Of a stretch of 64,000 bases of DNA, positions 13,705-23,104 are shown piece by piece. The notes below the pieces were generated by a model. The model did no database searches, had not been told where the DNA came from, and worked only from the letters and a program-made list of their open reading frames with translations. The DNA comes from Escherichia coli. GTDB lineage: Bacteria > Pseudomonadota > Gammaproteobacteria > Enterobacterales > Enterobacteriaceae. The position numbers were made by a program, and so were the translations under genes. The stretch is from assembly GCF_013315695.1 (NCBI RefSeq), contig NZ_CP054353.1; one strand, written 5' to 3'. Every line of letters begins with the position of its first letter. Within the stretch, counting starts at the first letter, position 1.

Positions 13705-16596
13705 ATGATTGGTACAACACCTTATCATGCGAAATATTTTGCGCATGAACTTTCCATTCTTCATTCAAACAATGGGGTGGACCGTCTGTCTCAATCGCTG
13801 TTTGATGCAAGCGTAGATCTAAACCCTCATCAAATTGAGGCGGCTCTTTTTGCTATCGAAAATCCGCTAAGCAAAGGTGTTGTGCTTGCCGATGAAGTTG
13901 GTTTGGGTAAAACCATTGAAGCTGGACTAGTGCTTTGCCAGTTGTGGGCTGAAAGAAAACGTAAACTGTTGATCATTTGTCCTGCTTCACTGCGTCGCCA
14001 ATGGGCGAGCGAGTTACAGGAAAAGTTCAATCTACCTTCTCAGGTGTTGGACGCGAAAATGTATAGCCAGCTTCAAAAAGAAGGGATCCATAATCCCTTA
14101 AATAATAAATCGATCACTATTATGTCATACCACTATGCTGCTCGGTTAGAAGAGAAATTGGTGGCTGAAATGTGGGATCTGGTTGTTATCGACGAAGCCC
14201 ATAAACTGCGTAATGCTCATCGAGAAAGCAACAAAATGGGGCAAGCGTTAAAGCGTGCGCTTGATGGGCGGAAGAAATTACTACTGACCGCAACGCCTTT
14301 ACAGAACTCGTTGATGGAACTGTATGGCATGTCGACGCTTATAGATGAACATACCTTCGGCGAAGTTAAAGCGTTCAGAAAGCAATATATGCAGGCAGAT
14401 AGCGATATTGCGGAGTTGAAGGGGCGATTGTCGCGTTTTATCAAACGAACTCTACGCAAGAATGTGCTGGAGTATATCAAGTATACAGAACGTAAAGCGA
14501 TCACTATTCCTTTCTATCCGAGCGAACAGGAGCAGGATCTTTATGAACGCGTACAAAAATTGCTTGAACGTGAGGATAGCTATGCCTTACCAAAACGACA
14601 CCGGCATCTGACGGGGCTTATACTCAGAAAACTACTTTCCTCAAGTACGAAAGCCGTATTGAATAACTTGCAGATCCTTAAGACTCGTTTAGAAAGGTTA
14701 AAGCTGGAAGGTATCGTTGAAGATGATATGGACATCATCCAACAGATCATAATGGATGATGATCTTGAAGATGACATCGTTGAAGATGCCGAATCAGTAG
14801 CGCCAGATACAGAGTGCAAATCTGTGGATTCAGATGCGCTTCAGGCAGAAATCAATGAGCTGGAATCACTCATTGTTAAAGCAGAACAGATTGGCACTGA
14901 TACCAAATCAAAAGAGTTGCTTTCTGGCCTGGAGCAAGGTTTTGCACAGCTTGCCGAAATGGGGGCTGCAAAAAAAGTCATCATCTTCACGGAGTCGATG
15001 CGAACTCAACAGTACCTTGCACATTTTCTGGAAAACAATGGCTACCAGGGAAAAGTAGTAACCTTTAGTGGCACAAACAATACACCGCAGGCAAACAAGA
15101 TCTACCAGCAATGGCGCGAGGAATATCAGGGATCTTCTCGTATTACCGGGTCGGCGCAAATTGATAAACGCTCGGCTTTGATCGACCACTTCAAAGATCA
15201 TGCTGAAATCATGATAGCTACAGAAGCTGCAGCTGAAGGGGTGAACCTGCAATTTTGTTCGCTACTGATCAATTACGATTTACCCTGGAACCCACAACGC
15301 ATTGAGCAGCGTATTGGACGTTGTCACCGATACGGGCAAAAATTTGATGTGGTTGTTATTAACTTCCTCAATCAGCGAAACCAGGCCGATCAACGCGTTC
15401 TTGAACTCTTAACTGAAAAGTTCAGCCTGTTTGATGGCGTGTTTGGCGCATCGGATAGTGTGCTTGGCAGCATAGAAAATGGTGTGGATTTTGAAAAAAG
15501 GATCCAGTCAATTTATGAGTCATGCCGTACCCCCGAGGAGATAGAGCTGGCTTTTGAAAGGTTGCAGAAAGAGCTGGAAGATGAAATCAATCTCAAGATG
15601 CAGAAGACGCAAGAACAGTTGCTTGAGCATTTTGATGAAGATATTCACGATATCCTTAAAATAAGGCTTGATGAAGCTCGGGAGCGCCTGGATAAAGTCG
15701 GTCGTTGGTTTTGGGCCGTGACCTGTCAGCAGCTCAAACAATATGCTGATTTTGATCATGAGCATCATCGTTTCACTTTACGTGAATCAGTCAATGAACT
15801 GCCTGTCGGGCAGTACCAGCTGTTGCGCAAAGATGGCAGGCAAAATAGTGCGTTACAAATGCAGGATCACCACAGTTTTGCATATCGGATCAATCATCCA
15901 CTGGGTGAGTACGTCATTGACGGAGCCAAAGCCCAGGAGACGAAAACAGCTGAAGTCATCTTCGATTACAGTAACCACACAACGAAAGTTTCGGTGGCTG
16001 AGCAGCTGAAAGGGCAATCAGGATGGTTAACACTAAATTTGCTTACTGTTGATGCGTTTAACAGGCAGCAATTTTTAGTCTTTACCGCGAAAACTGACAA
16101 CGGACGTGTGGTAGATGGTGAAGCTTGTAAACGTCTGTTCAACTTGTCTGCAATAACCAACGAAAAGCTGGATAATTCGGCAAGTTTAGATGCATTACCT
16201 GATGACTTGATCTTACTCAAGAACAGGCAAATTGACGCCAGGCTTGCAGAAGTTTTGGAGCAGAACAATGTCCTTTTTGAAGCGGAAAGAGATAAGCTGG
16301 AAAAATGGGCTGAAGACATGATCTTTGCGGCGGAAGAAGCATTACGCGATACCAAAATGCAAATCAAGTCGTTGAAGCGAGAAGCCAGGCTGGCGCAATC
16401 GATCGAAGAACAAAAGCAAAACCAGGAAAAGCTTAAGCTCCTGGAACGGCAGCAGAAGCGCCAACGTATGGAAATTTTTGACATTGAAGATGAGATCGCC
16501 GACAAGCGGGATGAACTCATCAGTGCCCTTGAAGAGCGGATGAAGCAAAAGACGGATATCACCGAGCTGTTTACCATCCGCTGGAAAGTTATTTAA
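13705..16596 (+). CDS. SNF2-family helicase-like ATPase with C-terminal coiled-coil region
   Basis: Motifs in translation: LADEVGLGKTIEAG (Walker A), VVIDEAHKLRN (DEAH-like), LLLTATPLQN, INYDLPWNPQRIEQRIGRCHRYGQ (motifs V-VI); C-terminal ~350 aa rich in E/K/Q heptad-like repeats. Strong RBS aagagagagaaaag before ATG. Confidence 0.85.
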   Translation: MIGTTPYHAKYFAHELSILHSNNGVDRLSQSLFDASVDLNPHQIEAALFAIENPLSKGVVLADEVGLGKTIEAGLVLCQLWAERKRKLLIICPASLRRQWASELQEKFNLPSQVLDAKMYSQLQKEGIHNPLNNKSITIMSYHYAARLEEKLVAEMWDLVVIDEAHKLRNAHRESNKMGQALKRALDGRKKLLLTATPLQNSLMELYGMSTLIDEHTFGEVKAFRKQYMQADSDIAELKGRLSRFIKRTLRKNVLEYIKYTERKAITIPFYPSEQEQDLYERVQKLLEREDSYALPKRHRHLTGLILRKLLSSSTKAVLNNLQILKTRLERLKLEGIVEDDMDIIQQIIMDDDLEDDIVEDAESVAPDTECKSVDSDALQAEINELESLIVKAEQIGTDTKSKELLSGLEQGFAQLAEMGAAKKVIIFTESMRTQQYLAHFLENNGYQGKVVTFSGTNNTPQANKIYQQWREEYQGSSRITGSAQIDKRSALIDHFKDHAEIMIATEAAAEGVNLQFCSLLINYDLPWNPQRIEQRIGRCHRYGQKFDVVVINFLNQRNQADQRVLELLTEKFSLFDGVFGASDSVLGSIENGVDFEKRIQSIYESCRTPEEIELAFERLQKELEDEINLKMQKTQEQLLEHFDEDIHDILKIRLDEARERLDKVGRWFWAVTCQQLKQYADFDHEHHRFTLRESVNELPVGQYQLLRKDGRQNSALQMQDHHSFAYRINHPLGEYVIDGAKAQETKTAEVIFDYSNHTTKVSVAEQLKGQSGWLTLNLLTVDAFNRQQFLVFTAKTDNGRVVDGEACKRLFNLSAITNEKLDNSASLDALPDDLILLKNRQIDARLAEVLEQNNVLFEAERDKLEKWAEDMIFAAEEALRDTKMQIKSLKREARLAQSIEEQKQNQEKLKLLERQQKRQRMEIFDIEDEIADKRDELISALEERMKQKTDITELFTIRWKVI

Positions 16597-16616
16597 TTGA
16601 TTTGAAAGAGAAAATA

Positions 16617-22700: not shown

Positions 22701-23104
22701 AAATTATTGGTGATAAAAGTTTATATCTGCTAAGAAATGCGGATTCTAAAAATAGAGGCCTGGGCTTTGCTACTGCGGGTAATTTTTATCCGGATTTCTT
22801 ATTGTGGTTAGTCGATGATAAAAGTGGTAAACAATGGTTAAGTCTTATTGATCCAAAAGGCATCCGCAATCTTAATCTTGATGATCCAAAGTTCGGATTA
22901 TATAAAGAAATCAAGAATCTTGAACATAAATTATCGGATGATAACTTATCATTAAGTGCATTTATTGTTTCTGAAACTTGTTATGTTGACTTAGTAAACG
23001 TACCTGATTCAAAAGAGAATCTGGAAGCCAGAAATGTGCTTTTTATTGAGGATACTGGTCCATTGTATCTGGAGAAATTATTCAGTAAGATGGTTAGCGA
23101 GTAA
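19724..23104 (+). CDS. Type III Res-like SF2 helicase with candidate C-terminal PD-(D/E)xK nuclease
   Basis: WNATGSGKT (Walker A), LVLIDEGHKG (DEAH-like), SRKFTEGWSSW, QLFGRGVRL (motif VI); C-terminal NFYPDF...LIDPKG fits PD...DxK. Starts 2 nt after the MTase stop with GGAGG SD. Confidence 0.8.
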   Translation: MAKKPTTGKAVKKETNSKLSFHKQLVLNRFMFHFFKDGTLQGLKNRLGEDRFEGIHEDGQSLFFHELSNYLFEVDLIDLDELRRYDLNIVQHWQQITEHRNRKEDTVLNMKYFQYLSLLFTEIYLDWYFNRKQQLLDGLNNELAAYNAENDKTAKDRANQFKSYVLDDLNKLAYWNATGSGKTLLLHVNILQYLHYFQNGNSHHYPDKIILLTPDERLSKQHLDELENSGFTQYQLFDKSKSAPFKGTIEVIDINKLDDKMGDKTVAVEAFEGNNLVLIDEGHKGTGSAAGAWMRRRDKLTRDGFAFEYSATFGQAVAGGNNVEAVETEIQKKKAKLLFETTALGKLSEEELAQIALTSEEQRDARIQATREVYGKSILFDYSYKFFYEDGYGKESLILNLNPQDDKKDERRYEYFTACLLSFYQQQYLFNKNKEKLNEFNIEKPLWVFVGNSVSGEDSDIHAVLRFLAWFLNHETQAKAWINDLIKNKARILDTKERNIFENRFTALMNAPEDIYADILSRLFNTTHSGQRLRVLNLIGSKGELALQVGEAEPFGLINIGDAPSLYKMCEEDTTFDYQRDDFAKSLFHTLNDKDSRLHILIGSRKFTEGWSSWRVSTMGLLNMGRGEGSQIIQLFGRGVRLKGRNYSLKRSTPGERPKGLHLEKLETLNVFGVRADYMATFKQYLEDEGITPSDEILELNFETRPNMPATRLKTLKLKDGYKDNQRLGFKRVYFPELYEVPADFQGKIKQPHIKLDLYPKLESIDTSRKGENTPVNVRNEAKLDYKIISAFDFDRLYLAIQNYKLQRGWSNLRVDKQRLIDFCTGKTKIGNSWYTLLIPASELEIKQYADIAKQEDIMLRLLTDYTDRFYNTLKNAYEGQFYEVTQVKEDDPGMIKMYHFEIEETDDGLAYASRLEQLQQLVIDGEIGKAKSWSASGMVAITFDKHLYYPLLSIEKNANIPLKMRPAALGASSEITFVHDLQSFVDSTKGQKIIGDKSLYLLRNADSKNRGLGFATAGNFYPDFLLWLVDDKSGKQWLSLIDPKGIRNLNLDDPKFGLYKEIKNLEHKLSDDNLSLSAFIVSETCYVDLVNVPDSKENLEARNVLFIEDTGPLYLEKLFSKMVSE

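Follow-up and report, generated by a model that had tools for sequence, protein, structure and literature searches.

A three-gene Escherichia coli cassette, very probably an Eco86II-family Type III restriction-modification system with a different Mod specificity allele

What system is encoded by three long, tightly spaced genes that lie beside nanS in E. coli, and is it a new one? The question is raised by a stretch of 64,000 nucleotides from contig NZ_CP054353.1 (RefSeq assembly GCF_013315695.1), referred to here as the window, in which genes for an SNF2-family ATPase, a Mod-like methyltransferase and a Res-like helicase-nuclease follow each other on one strand (Table 1). An initial annotation, made from the nucleotide sequence, interpreted these as an operon and as a candidate for an undescribed defence system. 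The operon is borne out: the genes are separated by 20 bp (SNF2-mod) and 2 bp (mod-res), and a terminator scan revealed no strong terminator-like site between them. The cassette is also AT-rich, as had been observed, with a guanine plus cytosine content of 35–44% compared to 51–56% upstream. The claim of novelty is not upheld. Judging from its genes, the cassette very probably encodes a member of the Eco86II family of Type III restriction-modification (R-M) systems whose Mod is a different specificity allele.

Eco86II, from E. coli NCTC86, is one of six Type III systems generating N4-methylcytosine (m4C) characterised by Murray et al. (2021, PLoS One; PMC8259958). M.Eco86II methylates the fourth base of GAGCC. 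In a partially purified native fraction, Eco86II cleaved both pUC19 and pBR322 ~25 bp 3′ of this sequence, with cleavage shown on head-to-head substrates (PMC8259958). The authors also described an extra helicase-like ATPase gene 5′ of mod, of unknown function and present beside Type III genes in >500 genomes. It was dispensable for methylation and its product was undetected by mass spectrometry in the cutting fraction (PMC8259958). According to the same paper, a single putative Type III system is present in NCTC86, and the E. coli strains with GAGCC m4C Type III systems are NCTC86, F9792 (EcoF9792I) and B4103-1 (EcoB4103II, Table 4 of PMC8259958).

In both NCTC86 (NZ_CP019778, L086) and the O27:H7 strain B4103-1 (L085), the three genes, their locus between a CP4-like island and nanS, and the flanks are as in the window. 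The window and NCTC86 proteins share 99.0% (SNF2; WP_000580534.1) and 98.7% (Res) amino acid identity. Mod is 64% identical overall, with near-identical first 388 and last ~145 residues and a replaced centre. Since SNF2 and Res are near-identical, the locus is the same and NCTC86 has a single putative Type III system, the window cassette is best regarded as an Eco86II allele. It also shows the arrangement of the Eco86II-type subgroup, a gene for a nuclease-free SF2 helicase-like ATPase just 5′ of a long (~3.1 kb) mod. The initial annotation had itself named a full-length match to a characterised system as one ground for abandoning its proposal, and Eco86II is essentially such a match. Searching the literature for the WP accession numbers of the proteins gave no match.

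The difference from Eco86II resides in the centre of mod. Relative to the NCTC86 and B4103-1 genes, the flanks of the window mod are 97–98% identical, whereas positions 17784–19279 are unaligned save for 160 bp at ~69%. A further allele occurs in an E. coli lineage of sequence type 648 (ST648; L002, NZ_CP008697, 8913–12018), where mod is split into two annotated open reading frames (ORFs) beside intact SNF2 and res genes; compared to this allele, the non-aligning stretch of the window is 17783–19127. E. coli includes at least three Mod alleles with a common 5′ breakpoint at window position 17783 (Mod residue ~389). The central segment of the window was found in 16 E. coli genomes and the GAGCC-type segment in 34, including NCTC86 (three assemblies), F9792 and B4103-1, that is, in all three strains listed for GAGCC in PMC8259958. 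Such central-block swapping is typical of the way in which active R-M systems exchange specificity. Because the replaced segment includes the target-recognition domain, the window allele probably recognises a sequence other than GAGCC, and this may be a previously unlisted motif. The choice between m4C and N6-methyladenine is not readable from the DPPY motif, as the m4C enzymes of PMC8259958 also carry DPPY/F.

The translated product of the first gene includes the motifs GLGKT (Walker A, K69), DEAH, TATPLQN and QRIGRCHRYGQ, and Pfam places SNF2-rel_dom at residues 42–289 and Helicase_C at residues 437–544. The core (residues 31–600) is followed by a conserved C-terminal region (601–840) and a coiled-coil-like tail (841–955), in which E, K, R, Q, D and L represent 66% of residues and P and G are absent. 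Translation, Pfam and composition all support the earlier description of a full SNF2 motif set followed by a coiled-coil-like tail. No conserved nuclease motif was observed in the protein and the Pfam scan gave no effector domain either. Its top match in PADLOC-DB is DrmD (PDLC02619; 4e-199, residues 31–684), with BrxH, HmaA (5.5e-58), DpdE and ZorD far weaker. Against the NCBIfam profile DISARM_DrmD_b it scores 667 bits, which is below the curated cut-off of 950 bits, and the match ends at profile position 658 of 868. The nearest solved relative by sequence is RapA. From these comparisons, gene 1 was identified as encoding a putative DrmD-like SNF2 double-strand DNA translocase without a nuclease, and by its sequence it is the "additional helicase-like ATPase" of Eco86II-type systems. 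Recognition of this ATPase as a DrmD-like SNF2 protein, though below the curated cut-off, is new relative to the 2021 paper.

As described initially, the product of the second gene is a beta-class, Type III-type Mod that has a long extension at its N-terminus. The DPPY motif (residues ~501–504) lies ahead of FAGSGT (residues ~775–780), which is the beta-class order with motif IV before motif I. The protein has the Type III fold and the target-recognition domain is located between the two motifs. It is composed of the highly conserved N-terminal extension (residues 1–470), the methyltransferase core with the target-recognition domain, and a conserved C-terminal domain (residues 830–1034). Pfam assigns it to N6_N4_Mtase (PF01555). 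In PADLOC-DB it matches MTase_III and MTase_II profiles only, one Type III methyltransferase profile being matched end to end (1551 bits), and among sequences of solved structures it matches EcoP15I Mod and Mbo45V. In the family alignment, the N-terminal domain is the best conserved part and residues 560–760 are the least conserved. Residues 121–160 are invariant in the family and predicted to be disordered in the monomer, so that they could be a docking site.

Res, encoded 2 bp 3′ of mod, carries GSGKT, DEGH, SAT and QLFGRGVRL motifs and a C-terminal PD-(D/E)xK motif. The SF2 ATPase motifs occupy residues ~177–315 and 600–645 in the N-terminal part of the protein, and the nuclease residues are E975, D1024, D1043 and K1045. 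An alignment of 37 family sequences shows no variation in the helicase motifs, E975 or D1024, with either D or E at position 1043 and either K or H at position 1045; motifs and alignment together sustain the initial assignment as a Res-type SF2 ATPase with a C-terminal nuclease. Pfam identifies ResIII, and the sole PADLOC-DB match is a Type III endonuclease profile (REase_III) covered end to end at 2306 bits. The profile searches proposed initially thus returned the domains foreseen (SNF2-rel_dom, Helicase_C, N6_N4_Mtase and ResIII), but Mod and Res match known Type III profiles over their full length. Queried against the sequences of solved structures, Res gave no meaningful match, EcoP15I Res included, whether one sequence or a profile of the family was used. 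The E. coli protein has a helical insertion of ~40 residues after helicase motif III (residues 321–360; window 20684–20803), which is missing in 78% of the 37 aligned family members.

Members of the Res family also occur on plasmids. About 200 plasmids of Enterobacteriaceae (e.g. NZ_CP110156.1, 19878–20180), mostly conjugative and from E. coli, Klebsiella and Salmonella, carry a 100-residue fossil corresponding to Res residues 654–754 (72% identity) that underlies a gene annotated as "DUF1158 domain-containing protein". Full-length copies with 63% identity are present on a few Klebsiella plasmids.

Sequences of the cassette were found in 190 of 5426 complete E. coli genomes, 150 of which carry at least 80% of it. 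Among carriers of the window allele, which include AF3, MSB1_4I, A20 and AR_0069, the three ORFs are intact and nearly invariant (at least 97.5% identity over 9.4 kb). Enterobacterial Res copies are 88–93% identical, and the Res family as a whole includes 783 clusters (50% identity) at E<1e-30. To judge co-conservation of the trio across genomes, one genome per species was scanned for the family, which yielded 79 loci, and tblastn with the three proteins was applied to these. Sixty loci included enough flanking sequence to assess linkage of the SNF2 gene. A full-length SNF2 orthologue, including the C-terminal tail, lies beside Mod-Res in 50 of these 60 loci, and the co-conservation that the initial annotation asked to be checked is thereby borne out. 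Forty-one of the linked loci have the order SNF2-Mod-Res, eight the order Mod-Res-SNF2 (in Pasteurellaceae, Neisseria and Cardiobacterium) and one another order. The loci are distributed among Proteobacteria, Planctomycetota, Actinomycetota, Acidobacteria, Nitrospirota, Spirochaetes, Kiritimatiellae, Myxococcota and Melainabacteria; one, without an SNF2 gene, is from a methanogen metagenome-assembled genome (MAG). SNF2 is the best conserved of the three proteins, with 52–55% identity where Mod and Res show 33–42%. Distance matrices of SNF2 and Res co-vary (Spearman 0.44, Mantel p<=0.001); the coefficient for Mod and Res is 0.82. This survey confirms and extends the "guilt by association" argument of PMC8259958.

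Approximately 25 loci carry inserts of 0.4–2 kb, most of which are located between mod and res and share their orientation. These encode PDC-S02 (DUF1016/YhcG), SoFic, PDC-S05, HEC-01A/B, GmrSD-like HEC-06, AbiU-like and PD-Lambda-2_B-like proteins (loci L003, L008, L012, L017, L018, L023, L024, L033, L038, L050, L054, L059, L062, L064, L065, L075, L077 and L080–L082). The embedded genes vary between loci, unlike the constant SNF2 orthologue. One study surveyed the embedding of defence genes in Hma, BREX, DISARM and Type I R-M systems, not in Type III (bioRxiv 10.1101/2024.01.29.577857), and nesting between mod and res carries the "guilt by embedding" idea over to Type III systems. In two SNF2-less loci from Chlorobiaceae, a protein of ~990 residues is encoded upstream of mod (L073, 3191–6169; L076, 3116–6103) and has weak NACHT (EruA-like) and FGE-sulfatase/GldK-like matches. 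This large ORF is not a replacement helicase and is probably a separate defence gene. Another SNF2-less locus (L033) includes a weakly helicase-like ORF of 1136 residues upstream of mod.

Features of the cassette and its immediate surroundings are collected in Table 1. The mod start was picked by conservation in the family alignment.

Table 1. Features of the cassette, in window coordinates
Feature	Position	Strand	Remarks
Gene 1, SNF2-family ATPase (DrmD-like)	13705-16596	+	ATG start, 963 aa
Gene 2, Type III Mod	ORF 16602-19721 from TTG; conserved ATG 16617	+	1034 aa, beta-class amino-methyltransferase
Swapped central mod segment	17783-19280	+	Mod aa ~389-890: motif IV, target-recognition domain, motif I
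Gene 3, Type III Res	19724-23104	+	1126 aa
Perfect 15-bp-stem hairpin	23116-23148		Terminator scan; directly 3′ of res stop codon
Small ORF, 100 aa	23151-23453	-	Convergent with res; possible accessory gene

The cassette sequence is 100% identical in E. coli isolate AF3, among others. In the AF3 annotation, a CP4-like island with Ag43, YeeR, an antirestriction protein and YeeU/CbtA lies upstream, while the 100-residue hypothetical protein, SBD-HNH remnants, a truncated nanS, nanM, nanC and the fim operon lie downstream. A degenerate copy of a tRNA 3′ end is present at ~13294–13316, followed by a terminator-like hairpin with a T-run (13332–13351); we take the copy to be the 3′ end of the tRNA-Leu gene leuX. 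There is no tRNA gene within the window. This leuX-like copy with its hairpin (13294–13351) marks the right end of the CP4-like island and the R-M cassette lies just outside it. The cassette is located between this island end and nanS, which is truncated; the initial annotation had placed it between an att-like repeat and core nanS. An anti-restriction gene, which had been noted ~4 kb away, is indeed present 3.4 kb 5′ of the cassette (9858–10343); it is part of the adjacent CP4-like island and nothing links it to the cassette. At the other end, the hairpin directly following res is likely to be a bidirectional terminator ending the operon.

The small convergent ORF beyond this hairpin is also annotated in NCTC86 and B4103-1. 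Relatives with 52–67% identity (tblastn) occupy the same place and orientation after res in loci L017, L035, L006, L050 and L011, from Shewanella, Arsukibacterium, Thalassolituus, Pseudomonas and a gammaproteobacterial MAG. Neither NCBIfam nor PADLOC gave a match for this ORF. It may represent a fourth gene travelling with the cassette, possibly as an accessory. Further downstream (~23768–24186, minus strand) is a remnant of an SBD-HNH gene for a phosphorothioated-DNA-binding Type IV restriction endonuclease, of which residues 151–290 remain, with a frameshift. The gene is intact (290 residues) in NCTC86 and B4103-1 and ~420 bp are deleted in the window, so that a decayed defence gene adjoins an intact one, the R-M cassette.

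How might the three proteins work? By analogy with Eco86II, for which this was demonstrated, and EcoP15I, for which it is established, Mod would bind a short asymmetric sequence and methylate one strand. The complex of Mod and Res would bind incoming DNA at sites that lack methylation. Res would use its SF2 ATPase to spend ATP on long-range communication between inversely oriented unmethylated sites, and its C-terminal PD-(D/E)xK nuclease would cut ~25 bp 3′ of a site. Type III systems are characterised by strand-asymmetric methylation of a short non-palindromic site and by ATP-dependent cleavage ~25–27 bp from one of two inversely oriented unmethylated sites; both were shown for the Eco86II allele (PMC8259958) and would be expected of the window allele by analogy. 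The SNF2 ATPase might clear or remodel protein-coated invading DNA, or aid loading and turnover of the complex, and it may possibly dock on the conserved N-terminal domain of Mod. We infer that the SNF2 protein is a dedicated in vivo accessory of Mod-Res, dispensable and outside the minimal cutting machine.

Several points weigh against this view of the cassette as an Eco86II-type system with its own SNF2 partner. Eco86II methylates DNA without SNF2 and its cutting fraction had no detectable SNF2 peptides (PMC8259958); the SNF2 gene is missing in 8–10 of the 60 assessable loci, which nevertheless keep the long Mod; and for this allele in particular we infer both activity and motif from sequence. 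The first two of these also make an essential role of SNF2 unlikely, and it is because of the published negative results and the sporadic loss of the gene that an accessory role is favoured. They bear directly on the idea of an obligate three-component system in which SNF2 is needed for defence in vivo, for example as a processive translocase or a sensor of unmethylated DNA. Its role would then resemble that proposed for class 1 DISARM, and the system would differ from classical Type III enzymes despite cutting by Mod-Res in vitro. The superior conservation of SNF2, the survival of its linkage through changes in gene order, the tight spacing within one operon, the DrmD profile as best match and the long, highly conserved N-terminal domain of Mod, with its invariant, predicted-disordered residues 121–160 as a possible docking site, all speak for such a trio. 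Given that Mod alone methylates, that cleavage was recovered without detectable SNF2 peptides (PMC8259958) and that the SNF2-less loci retain an intact long Mod and Res, we consider it unlikely. A related proposal, that SNF2 is a true third subunit seated on the Mod N-terminus and giving an in vivo capability absent from classical Type III enzymes, is tentative and somewhat unlikely. If true, that capability could for example be processive translocation, the remodelling of phage DNA that is coated with protein or shielded by anti-restriction functions, or a licensing step like that of DISARM, and the family would form an evolutionary and mechanistic bridge from Type III R-M to class 1 DISARM. 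The opposite extreme, in which the SNF2 gene is an independent neighbour, either a single-gene defence or a hitch-hiking RapA-like ATPase, draws on the relationship to RapA and on the PDC-S02, SoFic, PDC-S05, HEC-01, HEC-06 and AbiU-like genes nested between mod and res elsewhere. However, those embedded genes vary, whereas one and the same full-length SNF2 orthologue sits beside Mod-Res in 50 of 60 loci from different phyla; it also co-varies with Res and has no effector domain, so that independence is very unlikely.

Activity of the cassette in this strain is a separate matter. The cassette could be inactive here or serve mainly as a methylation-only epigenetic regulator: neighbouring defence genes are decayed (the phosphorothioate-dependent SBD-HNH gene is truncated here and intact in NCTC86), mod is split in the ST648 lineage, and Type III mod genes are often phase-variable regulators (PMC5909438). 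This appears distinctly unlikely in view of the three intact, nearly invariant ORFs among allele carriers and the intact catalytic residues of Res; moreover, no simple-sequence repeat precedes mod or lies within it. Hardly tenable, finally, is a reading as a class 1 DISARM or Hma variant, which is already refuted at the level of membership. It has in its favour that gene 1 matches DrmD profiles best (and HmaA more weakly), that class 1 drmD also precedes an adenine methylase gene (bioRxiv 10.1101/2021.12.28.474362) and that Hma and DISARM are known to harbour embedded defence genes (bioRxiv 10.1101/2024.01.29.577857). Yet DrmA, DrmB and DrmC are absent from the three proteins and the flanks consist of CP4-island genes and nanS; Res matches REase_III only, Mod matches neither DrmMI, HmaB nor HmaC, and the incomplete DrmD match falls under the NCBIfam cut-off.

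As a discovery the cassette is of little weight, since the 2021 paper already reported the family, its enzymology and the extra ATPase gene, and the window adds one more specificity allele. What is new here is the DrmD likeness, the linkage in 50 of 60 loci in two gene orders, the conservation rank of SNF2 and the embedded defence genes. The residual interest lies in a DrmD-type SNF2 ATPase that most members, from many phyla, keep beside Mod-Res and that exceeds even the restriction enzyme in conservation. It is a puzzle that this conserved ATPase is needed neither for methylation nor for cutting in vitro. The same question about the role of SNF2 proteins arises for DrmD in DISARM, BrxHII in BREX and DpdE in Dpd, and NCTC86 or the carriers of the window allele offer tractable E. 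coli strains in which to address the role of SNF2 ATPases in DNA-modification-based immunity.

How, then, does the cassette compare with known systems? The DUF499-centred BREX-related systems (PMC12839542) were rejected, as there is no DUF499 or BrxC-like gene here. Hma (Payne et al. 2021) has a similar three-gene helicase-methylase-ATPase layout and often has defence genes embedded between its core genes. Its HmaA carries a NOV_C nuclease domain, its methylase HmaB resembles m5C (5-methylcytosine) or tRNA methylases and its ATPase HmaC is of the AAA type (PMC8565338, PMC11232893). Hma was rejected since its methylase and its ATPase come from different families than those here; HmaB and HmaC were unmatched in PADLOC-DB and gene 1 matches HmaA at 5.5e-58 compared to 4e-199 for DrmD. 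The likeness to class 1 DISARM is in a DrmD-type SNF2 gene directly 5′ of an amino-methyltransferase gene for a non-palindromic site. The cassette methylase is of the PF01555 type, in contrast to DrmMI, which is pfam13659 (bioRxiv 10.1101/2021.12.28.474362), and the DrmD match does not reach beyond the first two thirds of the profile. With the sub-cut-off DrmD score, and with neither DrmA, DrmB (DUF1998) nor DrmC (PLD) present, class 1 DISARM was rejected, as the initial annotation had already concluded. Compared to EcoP15I and EcoP1I, the window Mod is ~400 residues longer, and neither its conserved N-terminal domain nor its C-terminal domain has a solved homologue; no sequence similarity was detected between the window Res and that of EcoP15I, and the cassette has a third gene, the SNF2 ATPase. 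The closest relative is Eco86II. NCTC86 differs in its intact SBD-HNH gene, and the window Mod in its central ~500 residues, which are replaced and include an unalignable target-recognition domain. The two cassettes share their locus, three-gene order, SNF2, Res, Mod residues 1–388 and ~890–1034 and the small convergent ORF.

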